IMG/VR virus record: IMGVR_UViG_2737471865_000001
Coordinates: 1-34,668 of that record
Origin: a virus
Taxonomy: Duplodnaviria; Heunggongvirae; Uroviricota; Caudoviricetes
Reading direction: 5' to 3' (one strand)
Length of the DNA stretch: 34,668 bases
Below are positions 3,406 through 34,668 of this stretch, in pieces. The notes under the pieces are model-generated. The model did not search any database. It saw nothing but the letters and a program-made list of their open reading frames with translations, and was not told where the DNA came from. Position 1 is the stretch's first letter, and each line of letters opens with the position of its first letter. Made by a program: the position numbers and the translations under genes.

Positions 3406-3576
3406 TCACGATCTCCCTTCTGGCGATACATTAACGCCTGCTGCGTGTACATGCGTCTCTGTAACTTGCTCTCCTTCACTGTGGTTGCAAGTGACATGAA
3501 TATCTCCTTCGTTACCGATTAATTCTTTCATCTGACGAATGAATTCTTCGTCTGACCAGTTATCTGTAAAACTCAT
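3406..3576 (-). CDS. hypothetical small early protein (56 aa from the ATG)
   Basis: Track ORF starts at a GTG; the ATG at 3574..3576 gives MSFTDNWSDEEF... and overlaps the upstream stop as ATGA (translational coupling). Confidence 0.4.
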   Translation of the reverse strand: MSFTDNWSDEEFIRQMKELIGNEGDIHVTCNHSEGEQVTETHVHAAGVNVSPEGRS

Positions 3577-3725
3577 TTCCTGCGATACCACGGAAGGTTG
3601 ATAGCTGATTTCATCGCTTTATTTGCTTCAAGCCACATTTTTGAATCACCAATAAATCTGGCTATTACTGCTTTGTTCTGTGCAGCACGAAGCATCTGGT
3701 GATTGATGGCTATTTCATTGCGCAT
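3573..3725 (-). CDS. Kil-like small protein (50 aa), not in the ORF track
   Basis: My translation: MRNEIAINHQMLRAAQNKAVIARFIGDSKMWLEANKAMKSAINLPWYRRK. The FIGD.KM core and position (between cIII-like and the recombination genes) resemble lambda Kil from memory. GGAGG RBS. Confidence 0.4.
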   Translation of the reverse strand: MRNEIAINHQMLRAAQNKAVIARFIGDSKMWLEANKAMKSAINLPWYRRK

Positions 3726-3844
3726 AACGCCTCCAGTTGTTTCTTTGCTGCTCTGATTAATTGTTTAACTCGGCGTGATAATTCAGATTCGTGCGGGTAG
3801 AAAGCGGACATGACGCCGCTACCCGCTAAAATATATTCATTCAT
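3710..3844 (-). CDS. cIII-like small protein (44 aa), not in the ORF track
   Basis: My translation: MNEYILAGSGVMSAFYPHESELSRRVKQLIRAAKKQLEALCAMK. Resembles the lambda cIII N-terminal and central region (M.YAIAG...ESLLERITRKLR) from memory. Start overlaps the HNH stop as TAATG. Confidence 0.4.
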   Translation of the reverse strand: MNEYILAGSGVMSAFYPHESELSRRVKQLIRAAKKQLEALCAMK

Positions 3845-4356
3845 TATTTGCTCCTGTAGAATTCGCCGTGATGCTTTCTGGCAAAGTCGCAGTAAGCTTT
3901 TTTGGCATCTTCTAATTCATTAAAGTACCCTAGATGTTTTTTCTTTCCGTTTAATTTCCCATAGGCAGCCCACTTTCTACTTTCCTTCTTCCATGTGACT
4001 CCTTTGCAACCTGATTTGTTGAGGGTGTTTATTTTACTATTCATTGAATTCTGTGAGTAAGTTGCAAGCCTCAGATTGCAAATTCTGTTATCTGTCTTAA
4101 TGCCATTTATATGGTCGATAATACCTTCAGGCTCAACACCGAAAGTGATAATCCATGCAAGTCTATGTGCAGCATAGTGTCTTCCGTTAATGAAAATCCT
4201 TAAGTAGCCGCTTGTTGTTATTGTTCCGGCAGTTCCACCTATCTTCCTTGCTCCATAAGATTTTAGCCATGTGAACTCACCAGAAATAGGGTTATATTTG
4301 ACAACATTATTAATCTCACTTAGGGAAATTAATTCAAGAATCTTTATAAATGCCAT
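3844..4356 (-). CDS. HNH homing endonuclease with AP2-type DNA-binding domain
   Basis: HNH_3-type motif GIIDHINGIKTDNRICNLRLATYSQN followed by an AP2-like GVTWKKESRKWAAYGKLNGKKKHLGYFNELEDAKKAY. AT-rich coding sequence. The track start is TTG at 4369..4371; ATG at 4354..4356 with an AGGA RBS is more likely. Confidence 0.8.
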   Translation of the reverse strand: MAFIKILELISLSEINNVVKYNPISGEFTWLKSYGARKIGGTAGTITTSGYLRIFINGRHYAAHRLAWIITFGVEPEGIIDHINGIKTDNRICNLRLATYSQNSMNSKINTLNKSGCKGVTWKKESRKWAAYGKLNGKKKHLGYFNELEDAKKAYCDFARKHHGEFYRSK

Positions 4357-4437
4357 TTTATATCCTATCAACTGCGTTCATTAATCAGCGTTTACGCTCA
4401 TGAATAAACACCTCTCGTGAAGCGTTATTGTTATGCA

Positions 4438-4466
4438 TATAAAAAAGCCCTCACATTGGAGGGCAA
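4438..4466 (-). terminator. rho-independent terminator (minus strand) upstream of the HNH gene
   Basis: Hairpin GCCCTC-acattg-GAGGGC (4447..4464), followed on the minus strand by TTTTTT. Confidence 0.6.
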
Positions 4467-4600
4467 AGAAGATTTCCAATAATCAGAACAAGTCGGCTCC
4501 TGTTTAGTTACGAGCGACATTGCTCCGTGTATTCACTCGTTGGAATGAATACACAGTGCAGTGTTTATTCTGTTGTTTATGCCAAAGATAAAGGCTACCA

Positions 4601-4801
4601 TCAGGCAGCCTTGTTGTTCTGTTTACCAAGTTCTCTGGCAATCATTGCCGTCGTTCGTATTGCCCATTTATCGACATATTTCCCATCTTCCATTACAGGA
4701 AACATTTCTTCAGGCTTAACCATGCATTCCGATTGCAGCTTGCATCCATTGCATCGCTTGAATTGTCCACACCATTGATTTTTATCAATAGTCGTAGTCA
4801 T
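4601..4801 (-). CDS. ral: restriction-alleviation protein Ral
   Basis: 66-aa Cys-rich protein MTTTIDKNQWCGQFKRCNGCKLQSEC... matching lambda Ral as I recall it, in the expected position between N and cIII. Confidence 0.6.
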   Translation of the reverse strand: MTTTIDKNQWCGQFKRCNGCKLQSECMVKPEEMFPVMEDGKYVDKWAIRTTAMIARELGKQNNKAA

Positions 4802-4983
4802 ACGGATAGTCCTGGTATTGTTCCATCACATCCTGAGGATGCTCTTCGAACTCTTCAAATTCTTCTTCCATATCTAACCTCAAATAAGTGGTTTGCTGCC
4901 TAATTTCATTTTCTGGCGACCAACACAAGTCACACCCATTTCACTGCGTGGCTTGCGGTAGTAAATTAGATTTGTTCAGACAA

Positions 4984-5006
4984 TAAAAAACCCACCGAAG
5001 TGGGCT
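4984..5006 (-). terminator. rho-independent terminator (minus strand, tL1-like)
   Basis: Hairpin CCCAC-cgaa-GTGGG (4991..5004), followed on the minus strand by TTTTTTATTG; immediately after the stop of the 114-aa gene. Confidence 0.6.
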
Positions 5007-5349
5007 ATGACCATTTTTTATTTGGATTTCGTTGGTGAGCGTGATTAACAACTCTGTGCATTACATCCTCATATTTTTCATCTTCAATTTTTTCGACATC
5101 GCGAGGAAATGGTGTTGCTAATGCTTTGTCAACTTTGTCCATTGGTTCTTCATTAATTTTATATTCAGGACCGTCATCTATAGCATTAAATCCAGGTGTT
5201 ACACCGTTTTTTAATGCATATGCTATCCTTTTTTCCCATCTCGCTATTCTCCTCCTGTCTCGAGATGTAAGACCTCTATCAGATACTTTTCTGTTTTGTC
5301 CGCGGTCAGGATTAACATAAATAGTCTTTTTCACCATAAGCATACTCAA
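5005..5349 (-). CDS. hypothetical hydrophilic protein (114 aa) between N and ral
   Basis: ORF whose stop region overlaps the N start codon as ATGA; no recognisable domain. Occupies the position where lambda carries sieB-region accessory genes. Confidence 0.5.
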   Translation of the reverse strand: MSMLMVKKTIYVNPDRGQNRKVSDRGLTSRDRRRIARWEKRIAYALKNGVTPGFNAIDDGPEYKINEEPMDKVDKALATPFPRDVEKIEDEKYEDVMHRVVNHAHQRNPNKKWS

Positions 5350-5651
5350 TAAGCACCGTACGGTAGTTTACTGTACAATTTTATTTTTTGGACTGCATGT
5401 ATTTTGTTTCCTAATGGGTTTGAATCTTTGTAATAAATACTTCTATTTTTTCGAACGACTTCTTCTTTCTTCTTGCAGCAAAGGCTTCCTAGTGATGCTG
5501 CTTTGTCTGCTCTGACGCAACCAGAGAGCTTTAGCGCAATTTTTCGCGCCAGTGCTTCATTACTGCGTCGCTCGGCAATAAGTTCTGCTCTGCGAGCTTT
5601 GTAGCGGCTTTTTGCCGTACCTTTGGATTCTTTCCAGACAATGGTTACCAT
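5346..5651 (-). CDS. N: N-like transcription antiterminator, phage-21 type
   Basis: Arginine-rich motif GTAKSRYKARRAELIAERR matches the phi21 N RNA-binding peptide from memory. ATG at 5649..5651 is preceded by AAGGAG. Sits immediately downstream of PL and nutL. Confidence 0.8.
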   Translation of the reverse strand: MVTIVWKESKGTAKSRYKARRAELIAERRSNEALARKIALKLSGCVRADKAASLGSLCCKKKEEVVRKNRSIYYKDSNPLGNKIHAVQKIKLYSKLPYGAY

Positions 5652-29952: not shown

Positions 29953-31302
29953 ATGGCTACGTGGCAACAGGGTATTAATTCTGGTGGTTTTCTGGCTGGC
30001 ATTGGTGCGCAAAATGAGAATGCGCCAAAAGCAAGCGACATTAACGCAACGCTTGGTCTGATCCGCGAAAACAATGAACTGGCTCGATCAGGTGCAAATA
30101 ACGTTGGTCTGACCGCGTTACGTGGTCTGGCTGGAGTTGCTGATATTTACAATCAGGAACAGCAACAGAAAGCGATTAGTGCGTTCAATAAGGTTCACGC
30201 TGATGCATGGGCTTCTGGTGATCCATCGGGACTATTTAAGTTTGCCCAGGAAAATCCAGCGTTTGTTGCACAGGCACAACAGGCGTTTTCCGGTCTTAAT
30301 GATCAGCAACGCAACGATATGGGCGATTTAGCCATGAGGGCTAACGTCGCTCTTTCTCAGGGACCGGAAGCCTACAGTAAATTCATTACTGACAACAAGG
30401 ACAGGTTAAATCGCGTGGGGGCGAATGCTGACTGGATGATTCAGACAGGTATCCAGAATCCAGAGCAGCTATCACACATGCTGACTACTATGACGCTAGG
30501 GGCTGTTGGTCCGGATAAAATGCTGGATTATCAGGATAAGATGGTTGGTCGCCAACTAGAGAAAGGGCGATTGGATGAAAGCATCCGTCAGGCTGACATG
30601 GAGAACGCGAGAGGATGGGCAAATATCCAAAACGCTCAACTAGACAGGGCTCAGCGGGCACAAATGCATAATGATAACGTAGCCCTGAAGTTGCAGGAAT
30701 TAGGGATGAAACAACAGGAAAGCGGAAAGATTGACCCAAAACTTGTTCGAGATCTGAATAGTGATATTAATGGGTTCTCAAAGAATTATTCTGCAATGCG
30801 CAGTGCTTCTGACAACCTACAAGCCCTTGGGAAGCGCAACACTCCAGCCGCGCAGTTGGGAATGATTTTCAACTATATGAAATCGCTGGATCCGCAATCT
30901 GTGGTACGCGAGGGTGAGCAAGTGCAGGTAAAACGCACTGATGGAATATTCGGCACACTTGGTAACTATGTTAGCCAATTATCTAACGGCAAGATGCTGA
31001 ATAATGAGCAAGTCCAAGACTTAATCAACACCTCAAAACTGATGGCAAATACTGAAGGCGAAAAGTTTAACCAGCAAATGGATGATTATCTTTCAACTTA
31101 TGGAGATTCTCTCCCCAGCGGACTAACTAAGCAATTGCAATCCAGAAAAGCCAAGCTGTATGAAGATATTCAGCAGCCTGCGCAACAACAGACACAACAA
31201 GCAACATCTGGCGGTCAAACATTTCGAGAAGGTATGACCGCGAAAAATCCTAAAACTGGTCAGAAAATTATTTACAGGAACGGACAATGGCAACCAATGT
31301 AG
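29953..31302 (+). CDS. ejection protein, gp20-like
   Basis: 449-aa Gln-rich ORF in the gp20 position. Confidence 0.75.
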
Positions 31303-33455
31303 GTTTACCAGAGGGGTTTGTTCTGGATGAACAGCCTGATAACTCACAACTTCCTGATGGCTTTGTGCTTGATTCCCAACCAGAACAGCAGCAATCTCCT
31401 TTGGTTTCACCAGAGGAAAACTCCAGACAGGAAAATGTTGTTAATAATGCTAACGGTTTCGACCGTTTTATGTATGGCGTTCTCAGTGGATTGATGGATG
31501 TTGGTAAAGGTGTTGGCCTGTTTCAGGATATGACACCAGAAGAGCAAGCCGCAATTCAGTCTCTACAGCAGAAGTTAGCGGCAAAACCATCAACCGCACA
31601 AGATGTTGGTGAGTTTGTTGGACAAGCAGCGCCATTTGTTAGTGGTGGTGGGATTATTTCTCAGGTTCCGAAAGGGGCGGCAAGGCTGGCTGCCGCCGCA
31701 GGGCTTGGTGCGGTTGAAGGTGGTGTTGTTGCTAACGGAACCGGTGGCAATGTAACTACAGGGGCGGCTATAGGTGCTGCCGCTGGTCCAATTGCTGAAT
31801 TGGCATCTCCAGTGATTAGCAAAGCAGCCAGTGCGGTTACGAAGAGGTTTAGGCCTCCATCGGCAGAAATGTCTCAGGCATCTGAACTTAGTGGAATGGC
31901 GAGGGTTGCAACGAAAGCTACAGATGTGAATCCAATAACAGGAAACAGATCTGGTTTAAATGCTCTCGCGGAAGCTGTTTCACCAGATGATTCTGTGCTA
32001 CAGGCCGCCCGCAATCTTGGGATGGAGGATGCCTTAACTCCCGGCATGTACTCCAGCAACCCTTCTTACCGCGCGTTTGAAAATGCTTTAGCTGCAACCC
32101 CAGGGAATAAACTGTTCCACGCACAGCGAGAGGCCATTAGTAGGCTTGGAGAGCAGGCAGATAAATTTATTAATGATTTTGGTGGGAGCGTTGATAAGGA
32201 CTTTATCAATCAAAAGGTCAAAAGCTCTTATGAGGAGTTAAGATCAAACCTGAAGCGCCAAGAAGACACTCTATACAATCAAATTAGAGCAAAAATTCCA
32301 ACAAGAGCTACCGTAGATACCACCCATACCACTAACGCCATTGAGGATATTGCAGATGATGTCGGTGGGCTAGAAAAACTAAAATCGCTATATCCTCAAC
32401 TGTCAAAGACCTTGGAACAAATAGACCCAAACACCGCCCCGACTTATGGTCTTCTTGATGCAGTTCGACGGCAGGTTGGAAGGGCTCTTGGCAAAGAGAT
32501 GGATAAAGGGCCATATAGCGGCATCGACGCTCGGCACCTTGGAATTATTGAAAGCGCACTGATACAAGATCAGGGAGCCGCTGCTGCCAAATATGGTGCA
32601 GAGGATACATGGAATTTAGCTAGAGAGATCGGGAGAAAGAGATTCGCAGTGCAGGCAGCCGCTGTTCAAAATCTTGGCAGAGACTTGGATAAAGGAATAG
32701 TGCCGCAATTACAGCAAGCTATCGTCGATATGTCTCAAGGAAAGGGCGGTGATTTCCGTCGCCTAGTTTCAAATCTTCCTGATGACATGGTGCAACCAGC
32801 TGTTGCCACCGCAATGAATAGGGCTTTCACTACGTTCGCTAAATCTCCCGGGCAGTCACTTGGTGTTCCTGGATTTGTTAAGTGGTATGGAGGGCTATCA
32901 AGAAACAAATCAAATATGCAGGCATTGAGCCGGGCAATTGGCTATCAGGCTACGCGTAGGTTGAGAAACATCTATGAGGTGGCTTCTGGCATGCAAAGGG
33001 TGGGCAGCGAGAAGGTGTATTCCTCCTCTCAAATTGACCGGATGATGAATCAGTTCGCAGGAGAGAAGGGAATGCTTGGGCGTATATATGGAATAGGAAA
33101 AGACGTGGCTAAAGCAGAAGGGCTAACCACAGCCATCGGAGCGCCTGGAGCCGGTACGGCAGGGGTACTCTTTAGCCTCCTCCGTTCTGGTAAAAATTCA
33201 AGAATGGCTGCCGCTGATGAATTAATAGCATCTCCGGCTTTTAAAAATCTCTCAAAAAGGATTGCCGCAGGCCACGCCAGCACCCCAGCATCTAGGAAAT
33301 CGGTGGATGCTTCAATGCAGAAAGTGAAACCATATAGGGATTGGGTAAATACGCTATCAGCGGACGAGAAGAAAAATCTAGCCCGCGTTGGTATTGTCGC
33401 TTTTCTCAGTAGTAACGATTCTTTGCCCACAGAGCAACAAGCAGGGCAACAATAA
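31287..33455 (+). CDS. ejection / DNA-transfer protein, gp16-like
   Basis: 722-aa ORF in the gp16 position (longer than the ~600 aa I recall for P22 gp16); Ala/Gly-rich central region. Confidence 0.7.
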
Positions 33456-33500
33456 TCCAACCGACTGTTACCATATTAACCTCCAGATAGCCATGGATGG

Positions 33501-33800
33501 CTATTCTGACATCCTTTTTAATTTATTGTATGACTCTATAGAATCTGTGCACAACTTCATGAACTCTTGAAGTGACATTCCTAGGCGAGAAATTTCCGTA
33601 TTCAAAAAACGTTCAATAAATTCATCTCCGCCGGGCATCTGTGTTGCTTCTTGAAAAGCAAACATTTGTTTAAATGTTCCACACATACCAGCAACTTTAG
33701 CTGTAACTAACATGTCGTTAGCAAATTTCAGATCCTTATCTTGCGATTGTGCAAGACCACTAATTAGAAAACAGAATGCACCTATAACCCATCGCTTCAC
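33501..33800 (-). CDS. small secreted (signal-peptide) protein of unknown function at the sieA-position locus
   Basis: 99 aa; N-terminal signal peptide MKRWVIGAFCFLISGLAQS; mature ~80-aa part with two Cys; GGGAGA RBS; gene is visibly AT-rich. Confidence 0.55.
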   Translation of the reverse strand: MKRWVIGAFCFLISGLAQSQDKDLKFANDMLVTAKVAGMCGTFKQMFAFQEATQMPGGDEFIERFLNTEISRLGMSLQEFMKLCTDSIESYNKLKRMSE

Positions 33801-33825
33801 ACCAATCTCCCACTAAGGTAATAAT

Positions 33826-34011
33826 ATGACCATAGAAGAACGCCTGAACAACATTGAGTTGAATCAAACCCTGCTTGACCAGCGACTTTCAGATCTTGAG
33901 CTTAAAGATCTAGATGCGCAAATATCGGAAGCAGAAGCCAAGCTCTCCAGCCTAAACCACCGCAAGAAGCAAATCCGCAACAGAATTACTCAGGGACGCG
34001 GAAGCTGTTGA
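33826..34011 (+). CDS. hypothetical small coiled-coil protein (61 aa)
   Basis: ORF with AAGG RBS; charged, leucine-heptad-like; its start region lies within 30 bp of the divergent secreted-protein gene start, so one of the two may not be expressed as drawn. Confidence 0.3.
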   Translation: MTIEERLNNIELNQTLLDQRLSDLELKDLDAQISEAEAKLSSLNHRKKQIRNRITQGRGSC

Positions 34012-34195
34012 GGTGGGATGCAAGGTCTCTATCGTTAAAATCAAGGCTGCTAATCATTTCATTGTAAATAGCGTTTTTATCTTCCATTGGCAGTCTTGAG
34101 TAAACCAGACACAGAGCATATTTCAGGGAGTTTAGCTCTTTCTCTAGCTCTTCCTTGCTTGACGTTTTTGACTTAATAAACTGTTTTTTATTCAT
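33986..34195 (-). CDS. hypothetical small protein (69 aa) downstream of the mnt-like gene
   Basis: ORF whose start overlaps the mnt-like stop (operon-like coupling); AT-rich. Confidence 0.4.
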   Translation of the reverse strand: MNKKQFIKSKTSSKEELEKELNSLKYALCLVYSRLPMEDKNAIYNEMISSLDFNDRDLASHLNSFRVPE

Positions 34196-34443
34196 TTTGT
34201 ATCCTTACCATACATGGTTTTCAGCGTCTCAACATCGTGTTCAAGATCTATCAATCGTGATGCTATAGTTGCAAGGTCTAGTGCTTGAATGTGTTTATTT
34301 TTTTCTGTCCACGCTTCAAGTGCCGCGACCATCTCAGCATTTAATGAACGAGAATTAGCCTCAGCCAGTTCAATAAGACGTTCCTTTATCTCTACAGGAA
34401 GCCTCAGATTCACTTGAGGGTTTTTGTACTTACGATCAGACAT
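34192..34443 (-). CDS. mnt: Mnt-like ribbon-helix-helix repressor
   Basis: 83 aa from ATG at 34441..34443 (the track start is an upstream GTG). KNPQVNLRLPVEIKERLIELAEANSRSLNAEMVAAL fits the Arc/Mnt RHH fold, with a C-terminal helical oligomerisation tail; same length as P22 Mnt. Confidence 0.7.
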   Translation of the reverse strand: MSDRKYKNPQVNLRLPVEIKERLIELAEANSRSLNAEMVAALEAWTEKNKHIQALDLATIASRLIDLEHDVETLKTMYGKDTK

Positions 34444-34481
34444 CGGCACATCCTGAATAATTTTTTACCACAGGATATGTA

Positions 34482-34518
34482 GGTATCTATTGACTATCAA
34501 TGCGTACCTAAATACTAT
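34482..34518. promoter_or_regulatory. immI-like divergent promoter/operator region
   Basis: Plus-strand promoter TTGACT (34490..34495), 17-nt spacer, TACTAT (34513..34518) directed at the arc-like gene. The -35 is embedded in a 29-bp imperfect palindrome TAGGTA-tct-ATTGA-cta-TCAAT-gcg-TACCTA (34482..34510). ATGCGTACC occurs twice 22 bp apart. Confidence 0.6.
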
Positions 34519-34548
34519 GTATGCGTACCACATACAACGGAGAATGCA

Positions 34549-34668
34549 ATGAAGGTAAAAACACTGCGTATGCCAGAGAAGTTAGAAAAAATCCTTGAAG
34601 AGAAAGCAAAGGAAGAGTGTCGCTCATTTAGCGCAGAAGTAATTAAACGGTGTTCTTGCCCCCTAATT
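34549..34668 (+). CDS. arc: Arc-like RHH repressor, 5' partial (runs off the window end)
   Basis: My translation MKVKTLRMPEKLEKILEEKAKEECRSFSAEVIKR... shows the Arc-type pattern (basic beta-strand then ...RS.SAE/NSEI...); GGAG RBS; divergent from the mnt-like gene. Confidence 0.5.
   Translation, partial: MKVKTLRMPEKLEKILEEKAKEECRSFSAEVIKRCSCPLI

Follow-up and report, generated by a model that had tools for sequence, protein, structure and literature searches.

In bacteriophage P22, the immI control region adjoins a slot that carries accessory cargo; both the architecture and the presence of cargo at this position are already known, and the slot is hypervariable. The P22 record gives the gene order as gene 16, sieA, orf59a, mnt, arc and ant, and labels mnt 'maintenance of lysogeny'; it is likewise described in the literature as a lysogeny-maintenance gene of P22 (PMC12922286). 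SieA, an inner-membrane protein of about 160 amino acids (aa) with three transmembrane (TM) segments that exists in three sequence types, blocks DNA injection via gp16 and gp20 (PMC10883804). The subject of this report is a gene encoding a predicted exported protein of 99 aa that lies at the equivalent position in the virus record IMGVR_UViG_2737471865_000001, a stretch of 34,668 nucleotides (nt) that was analysed as a whole and is called the window below. The locus had been singled out from its sequence (the original prediction) as a candidate site of an exclusion system. The analysis tentatively favors a protective role for the 99-aa protein at the envelope of lysogens.

The window genome is P22-like (Lederbergvirus), and its nearest phage is coliphage Kapi1. 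A segment of 1.4 kb round the locus matched this temperate phage at 98.6%, the mnt/arc part was 96.8% identical in DNA sequence to phage CUS-3, and a prophage in an E. coli O20:H12 pig isolate was 99.7% identical over 33456-34200 with the gene order unchanged. Genes for gp7-, gp20- and gp16-type ejection proteins lie upstream. From these relatives, the upstream ejection genes and the P22 gene order, the locus is identified, on sequence grounds, as the immI control region and adjoining variable cargo slot of a P22-like prophage or phage. The original prediction had placed it at the sieA/immI position with variable accessory cargo, an assignment borne out by the Kapi1, CUS-3 and P22 gene orders and by the varied cargo of the relatives.

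As in P22, the locus lies between gene 16 and arc and has a full-length Mnt, the start of a divergent arc, overlapping divergent promoter-like sites, a small open reading frame (ORF) after mnt and an accessory gene beside gene 16. In contrast to SieA, the accessory product of the window is predicted to be a soluble exported protein. The 69-aa ORF that follows mnt is unrelated to orf59a, an extra conserved 61-aa gene on the plus strand is interposed, and neither the mnt terminator nor a sieA-type promoter was identified in the window. A tblastn search of the window with P22-type SieA, the only SieA used as query, returned nothing at E<=10, and no ORF of the locus has a hydrophobic segment of TM length except the signal peptide of the 99-aa protein, as expected from the earlier statement that no membrane protein the size of SieA is encoded here. 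In Kapi1 (Kapi1_059-063; MT813197), the 99-aa, 61-aa and 69-aa genes are 97-100% identical in DNA sequence and keep their order, whereas the mnt/arc allele is a different one and longer forms are annotated for two of the ORFs (103 and 93 aa); the Kapi1 record labels every one of these genes 'hypothetical'. Kapi1 also has an insertion of about 250 bp with Kapi1_060 (L001:4511-4760) that is absent from the window, where the equivalent point lies between 33812 and 33813.

The gene of interest and its signal-peptide region are as follows.

33501..33800, minus strand: gene for the 99-aa exported protein precursor (PHROG 19844 family), GTG start; the product is predicted to be a disulfide-capable three-helix bundle
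33750..33800, minus strand: signal-peptide coding region (MKRWVIGAFCFLISGLA), with an approximate cleavage site, from DeepTMHMM on Kapi1_059

A Shine-Dalgarno sequence, GGAG, is located six nt upstream of the GTG. The N-terminus of the protein has K/R residues followed by a hydrophobic segment, and the 99%-identical Kapi1_059 carries a signal-peptide annotation from DeepTMHMM. Of the three cysteines of the precursor, one falls within the signal peptide while C40 and C84 belong to the mature part, so that both the signal peptide and the cysteine pair of the original prediction were upheld. The protein matched PHROG 19844 with E=2.7e-27, its residues 12-98 aligning with positions 15-101 of the 105 in the profile. 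AlphaFold2 (AF2) modeled it with high confidence as a three-helix bundle, with a predicted local distance difference test score (pLDDT) of 82 when the signal peptide was included and 91.9 for the mature domain (93 sequences). The model puts C40 in helix 1 and C84 in helix 3, and the natural reading is that a predicted disulfide staples the two helices. No enzyme-like features were seen in the AF2 model.

Scans of the locus proteins and 51 family members against Pfam, PHROGs, NCBIfam and PADLOC returned, as regards the family, only PHROGs without assigned function, and a PDB profile search with the 99-aa family gave no matches at E<=10. The fold search with the 99-aa protein was uninformative, with no match to any viral-structure entry. 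These searches agree with the earlier view that the protein has no named family. The closest catalogued relatives are PHROG 19844, of which the window protein is a member, and WP_022630937.1, WP_000820796.1 and WP_000820795.1. As a working analogy only, the protein can be compared with T4 Spackle (Sp, gp61.3), a superinfection-exclusion protein of the periplasm, the target of which is the gp5 lysozyme: the two are similar in length (97 and 99 aa), both have an N-terminal signal peptide and cysteines in the mature part, and both are phage-encoded with a periplasmic location, which is predicted for the 99-aa protein. They have no sequence relationship, however, and a T4-type gp5 is not involved here.

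The coding status of the ORFs was assessed by counting the substitutions relative to related sequences as synonymous or non-synonymous in all three frames. In the called frames, the ratio of synonymous to non-synonymous changes was 6.5/3.5 for the 99-aa ORF, 12/2 for the 61-aa ORF, 5/1-2 for the 69-aa ORF and 12/5 for mnt, while in the other frames of the same four ORFs the changes were mostly non-synonymous. Since the synonymous excess was confined to the called frames, all four are real genes under purifying selection. Every ORF listed in the original prediction, the Mnt-like ribbon-helix-helix protein, the 69-aa and 99-aa ORFs and the convergent 61-aa ORF, was found where it had been placed.

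The family proved far larger than PHROG 19844 and reaches beyond phages. A word-indexed search with the 99-aa protein found ten close clusters only, while an exhaustive profile search found 254 clusters (50% identity) at E<=1e-3, 173 of them at E<=1e-10. Nearly all members are about 100 aa long. A hydrophobic N-terminal 10-mer was present in 212 of 217 full-length members and at least two cysteines after the core motif in 221 of 227, with lipobox-like motifs in only 5. A conserved signal peptide, mostly with no lipobox, identifies the members as predicted Sec-exported periplasmic proteins. K35, C40, Q50, E69, R72 and C84 are invariant, and the near-invariant positions include G38, G41, F49, T53, G58, F61, R64, F65 and Y91. 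The family is catalogued but uncharacterised; the analysis brought together its size, the near-universal export signal, the predicted fold and the two positions, never shared, that it takes in P22-like prophages, one of them fused to mnt. The new element is the second allele, described below, that directly follows mnt.

Most of the distant members were from metagenomes, with Gammaproteobacteria and Burkholderiales among the groups represented, and every one was annotated as 'hypothetical'. Eleven contexts outside P22-like phages were inspected. They comprised an island next to tRNA-Ser, other islands that carry an integrase, a satellite-like element whose genes include a serine recombinase, a VapE-type primase and a capsid gene, and the early part of a prophage of another type; one further site was close to an IS110 element, and several more were ordinary chromosomal positions. 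The occurrence of homologues on islands, satellite-like elements and chromosomes means that a target limited to P22-type ejection proteins is not implied. In 3 of the 11 loci, neighbouring genes matched PADLOC defence or candidate models (PD-Lambda-3_B/HEPN, 7e-13; PDC-S31, 3e-26; PDC-M41A, 5e-16; and a weak LmuA-like nuclease domain). A search of PLSDB for copies on plasmids gave none. An all-against-all comparison of the neighbours from 14 contexts yielded no conserved partner gene except in one syntenic locus pair, where the shared neighbour was a small lipoprotein.

Lipoprotein genes, mutually non-homologous, often adjoin family members (L022:3493-3978; L005:6190-6675; L013:8278-8607; L050:2819-3079; L004:1038-1409; L047:4205-4459), and in two syntenic chromosomal loci a gene for a small Cys-rich lipoprotein overlaps the family gene. 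There is no lipoprotein gene beside the 99-aa gene in the window.

Within P22-like prophages, the family occupies two positions, as seen in 23 IMG/VR loci, 11 with the allele of the window and 12 with a second allele that is 47% identical (WP_000820796/WP_000820795) and matches PHROG 19844 at 7e-64. The window-type allele was the last gene before the convergent gp16-type gene in its 11 loci, separated from mnt by variable cargo (orf121, orf59, Kapi1_060 and others), and it always adjoined one C-terminal allele of gp16, 99-100% identical in nine IMG/VR loci. The second allele lies directly after mnt, in the place of the 69-aa gene, and starts 1-4 nt inside the mnt stop in 11 of its 12 loci, the other (L045) having a 15-nt gap. 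At least three different alleles of mnt share this junction. The two family alleles never co-occurred in the 23 loci, which suggests redundancy. The second allele was present in 54 of 5426 complete E. coli genomes, among them O104:H4 strains such as HUSEC2011, and in all 54 the match spanned the neighbouring Arc-family (mnt) annotation. A gene for a 161-aa lipoprotein (PHROG 6067) comes next after the family gene in HUSEC2011 and at several other loci.

Mosaicism was also seen within the 99-aa gene. Comparison with other alleles (window 33501-33602 against L005-L008; P0004-P0006) showed that the first 199 nt are about 95% identical, after which there is no DNA similarity; the break swaps the end of helix 2 and the whole of helix 3. 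P0006 looks like a hybrid, with an N-terminus of the window type and the C-terminus of the mnt-coupled allele.

The placement of the family gene as the second cistron of the mnt operon in relatives is structural evidence for expression from the prophage. In RNA-seq of Kapi1 lysogens, Kapi1_059 was absent from the list of undetected genes, and the authors noted that spontaneous induction contributes to the signal (PMC12922286). In the window, a dedicated promoter for the 99-aa gene was considered and rejected: only about 32 nt upstream are conserved across contexts, and these have a -10-like hexamer and no -35.

Taken together, the data point tentatively, as a best guess that is nevertheless less probable than not, to a protein that lysogens would produce and that would shield them at the envelope, the periplasmic stage of infection by an incoming phage being the most plausible point of action. 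The 99-aa gene would be a stand-alone accessory gene (a 'moron'). In the window its transcription would result from read-through beyond the 69-aa gene on the mnt-69aa transcript or would start at a weak promoter belonging to the gene, whereas in many relatives the mnt operon would include it directly, as its second cistron. The product would be exported by Sec, lose its signal peptide and fold in the periplasm into a bundle of three helices and about 80 residues, with the C40-C84 disulfide between helices 1 and 3. A conserved polar face formed by K35, Q50, T53, R64, E69, R72 and Y91 would bind the target, which may be a component that incoming phages need in crossing the periplasm or the virion's own periplasm-acting proteins. 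The outcome would be superinfection exclusion, in the place held by the membrane protein SieA in P22. Exclusion is suggested by the logic of the slot, since P22 keeps sieA here and the window lacks it, and the cargo- or defence-like settings of distant members (islands, the satellite-like element, the other prophage type) were counted in favor of a protective function.

Several observations weigh against this proposal, 1) homology of the 99-aa protein to T4 Spackle was rejected (hhalign probability 0.3%), 2) mimicry of gp20- or gp16-type ejection proteins was rejected, as there was no resemblance, 3) no convincing promoter or terminator was found round the 99-aa gene in the window, 4) mnt itself was undetected in Kapi1 lysogens (PMC12922286), so that expression of the 99-aa gene from Pmnt is not assured, 5) some family members are ordinary chromosomal genes, 6) the number of defence neighbours is small and comes in part from 'candidate' models and 7) the strict polar residues, kept across far-apart bacteria, suggest a conserved host or small-molecule partner more than they do fast-evolving phage proteins.

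A more general version of the proposal, which we consider rather unlikely, is that the family constitutes a new class of soluble periplasmic anti-phage proteins, each a single disulfide-stapled bundle of about 80 residues that blocks trans-periplasmic delivery of DNA, substituting for SieA in P22-like prophages and acting as a stand-alone defence gene on islands and satellite-like elements of many Proteobacteria. The step blocked would then be the gp7/gp20/gp16-type conduit or the wall-opening activity of the virion.

The main rival explanation fits the same facts except the slot logic. It holds that the protein is a lysogenic-conversion or host-fitness factor, a periplasmic inhibitor or 'orphan immunity' protein that mobile elements carry and that is directed against envelope-attacking enzymes or toxins, with lysozyme-type and other peptidoglycan hydrolases, periplasm-acting bacteriocins and type VI secretion system (T6SS) effectors as possible targets. 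A small, predicted periplasmic disulfide protein with no conserved partner, with invariant polar residues that suggest a conserved target, and with relatives on islands, satellite-like elements and chromosomes of many Proteobacteria would suit such a function, as would the non-homologous lipoprotein genes that adjoin family members in several contexts. Nevertheless, the protein has no sequence or fold similarity to known lysozyme inhibitors or immunity proteins, an effector or toxin gene was nearby in none of the examined loci, and the gene was not found on plasmids, and we regard this explanation as doubtful.

Alternatively, the protein could serve the phage's own cycle, being made in lytic growth, for example in the timing of lysis or in connection with the phage's own periplasm-acting proteins. 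The gene does lie beside the ejection genes, in close linkage with a single C-terminal allele of gp16, and the RNA-seq of Kapi1 lysogens cannot separate lysogenic expression from spontaneous induction. This possibility is nonetheless improbable, because the gene lies on the strand opposite the late operon and is co-cistronic with mnt in relatives, because it is dispensable, most P22-like prophages lacking it and about 130 E. coli genomes keeping only the neighbouring genes, and because the family has members outside phages.

The O-antigen, or lipopolysaccharide (LPS), of Kapi1 lysogens is changed, and the 99-aa protein might be the factor responsible, modulating from the periplasm how O-antigen chains are polymerised or ligated, or how long they become. 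Kapi1 has the 99%-identical copy, the protein is predicted to be in the right compartment, and the four Kapi1 candidates tested, which did not include Kapi1_059-062, did not contain the O-antigen-modifying gene (PMC8787464). On the other hand, the family co-occurs with many tailspikes and O-types, O104:H4 also has a conventional acyltransferase next to the tailspike, members are found in bacteria far from Enterobacteria, and enzyme-like features are absent, all of which make this explanation still less probable than a function in the lytic cycle.

In the same phage, the gene hyp19 could not be deleted, and the deletion construct was toxic in non-lysogens, which the authors blamed on a flanking hypothetical gene (PMC8787464). 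When the hypothetical proteins of the Kapi1 record are counted, hyp19 corresponds to Kapi1_058, which is the gp16-type gene; directly downstream of it is Kapi1_059, the 99-aa homologue (both at L023:30414-32936). The toxicity of the construct may therefore be linked to Kapi1_059.

The neighbours of the 99-aa gene on either side are as follows.

31287..33455, plus strand: gene for the gp16-type ejection (DNA transfer) protein, 722 aa, left edge of the cargo slot, homologue of Kapi1_058
33456..33500, no strand: spacer of 45 nt between the convergent gp16-type and 99-aa genes
33826..34011, plus strand: gene for a 61-aa coiled-coil protein (PHROG 7586, E=3e-44), a conserved anchor of the slot
33986..34195, minus strand: gene for a 69-aa cytoplasmic protein (PHROG 16466)

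Relatives of the 722-aa gene carry the Pfam domain Phage_P22_gp16, and the neighbours in the prophage Res13 are labelled 'DNA transfer'. A 7-bp hairpin at 33487-33504 overlaps the stop codon of the 99-aa gene. Its folding score (z=-1.7) was not significant and no U-run follows it on either strand, so it is not a demonstrated terminator, and a terminator between gp16 and the 99-aa gene was rejected. No credible Rfam match to a structured RNA was found in the locus, and PADLOC models searched against all locus proteins gave noise only (E=4e-3 over 26 aa; PbeC, 7e-4, on the coiled coil).

The 61-aa and 99-aa genes diverge, 25 nt separating their start codons, while the 61-aa and 69-aa genes converge and overlap by 26 nt at their 3' ends. 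The 61-aa gene is the most constant element of the slot, being found in about 130 of the 5426 E. coli genomes and in nearly all IMG/VR loci, and matches to it often stop precisely at its start and stop codons. It lies on the strand of the late operon, antisense to the genes on the mnt side, and is under very strong purifying selection. Assignment of the 61-aa ORF to the XhlA family was rejected (Pfam PF10779, 14.1 bits against a cutoff of 34.7, E=0.056); the name is given by PGAP and CDD only to the longer 93-aa forms in other genomes. The ATG of the 69-aa gene overlaps the TGA of mnt as ATGA, the geometry of translational coupling described in the original prediction. The 69-aa family is highly conserved and, at >=75% identity, confined to E. 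coli and Salmonella, and homology of its product to P22 orf59a was rejected as there was no similarity.

The 61-aa and 69-aa genes occurred together in about 74 of the 5426 E. coli genomes and the 99-aa allele of the window in 3, and many E. coli prophages have the 61-aa, 69-aa, mnt and arc genes together without the 99-aa gene. Judged from these distributions, the 61-aa and 69-aa genes assort independently and are separate genes rather than partners of the 99-aa protein. The independent assortment of the 69-aa and 99-aa genes means that the two do not form one system. The idea, implicit in the original prediction, that the Mnt-like, 69-aa and 99-aa proteins constitute one three-component exclusion or immunity system, for which the common strand, the coupling of mnt to the 69-aa gene and the failure to detect a terminator before the 99-aa gene could be cited, did not survive and is the least probable of the explanations considered, given that the 69-aa gene mostly occurs without the 99-aa gene, that the second family allele replaces it, that Kapi1_060, orf59 and orf121 intervene in relatives, that distant members have no homologues of the other two nearby and that no conserved partner was found. 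The probability that remains was assigned to explanations not considered here.

The slot is a hotspot for cargo, and other prophages hold hkcB-type genes or genes for P63C-domain and Panacea-domain proteins in it. In E. coli prophages, a ClpP-like protease gene translationally coupled to mnt (L019:2764-3554) and genes for Panacea-domain (L021:1592-2035) and P63C-domain (L010:2228-3196) proteins were observed, so that the position after mnt is varied. Kapi1_060, the gene in the Kapi1 insertion (PHROG 37095), encodes a peptide of 60 aa that has four cysteines and an N-terminus predicted to be hydrophobic or a signal, and recurs as an optional module in many IMG/VR loci.

The original prediction described the locus as markedly AT-rich. 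Its GC content of 40.0%, compared with 47.5% for the window, does fall within the lowest 4% of equal-sized sliding windows; the depression is only moderate, however, and is not the minimum, as the region 3500-5400 is more AT-rich, with GC down to 38.5%.

The remaining features belong to the repressor genes and the region between them.

34192..34443 (to 34449 with an upstream GTG), minus strand: mnt, encoding an 83-aa ribbon-helix-helix repressor, a CUS-3-type allele
34444..34548, no strand: mnt-arc control region, with putative overlapping divergent sigma-70-like promoters and repeats
34500-34472, minus strand: promoter-like site TTGATA/TATCCT, from a promoter scan
34490-34518, plus strand: promoter-like site TTGACT/TACTAT, from a promoter scan
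34483-34503 and 34504-34524, no strand: two tandem 21-nt direct repeats in the control region
34549..34668, plus strand: arc, encoding an Arc-family ribbon-helix-helix repressor (Pfam Arc E=1.4e-3 on a 40-aa fragment); the window ends inside the gene

Over 81 of its 83 aa, the Mnt protein of the window shares 32% identity with P22 Mnt (E=2e-12), full-length homology that takes in the C-terminal oligomerisation half. It matches Pfam Arc at E=3e-10 and has P22 Mnt (1mnt) as its top PDB match (E=3e-5). The 9-mer ATGCGTACC occurs twice in the window, against 0.19 expected, with a spacing of 21 bp. The promoter-like pairs are at consensus level; their number is not above that expected from shuffling the control region. 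The Res13 prophage and CUS-3 have almost the same sequence here, and the layout of the region parallels the annotated Pant, Pmnt, Oarc and Omnt of P22; the repeats may act as operators. Arc of the Res13 prophage is 46 aa long, and ant was read downstream of arc only in this near-identical prophage and in Kapi1, as the window stops within arc.

The last 18 nt or so of the window, 34651-34668 (TGTTCTTGCCCCCTAATT), diverge from the arc coding sequence of all relatives, and the junction had no match in any complete E. coli genome. An assembly edge, a rearrangement or the terminus of an inserted element might account for this segment; its start, TG...GCCCC, resembles the inverted-repeat end of an IS3-family element. 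If the divergence is real, arc is disrupted and ant is uncoupled from its own promoter.

Few defences are as poorly understood as those that block the entry of phage DNA. The 99-aa gene does not amount to a discovery, but it is a well-defined candidate that can be tested, a single gene for a predicted exported protein with a predicted simple fold; a member of its family occupies the SieA slot in about 1% of complete E. coli genomes, those of the O104:H4 outbreak lineage among them. This simplicity, its frequency in E. coli and its relatives across the mobile elements of Proteobacteria make it a cheap and specific test case. If the protein does not act in exclusion, it still represents a conserved periplasmic family and a candidate for the envelope phenotypes of Kapi1 lysogens. 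If it does exclude phages, it would provide a soluble probe for the periplasmic stage of DNA delivery by podoviruses and add a new defence family to genome annotation.

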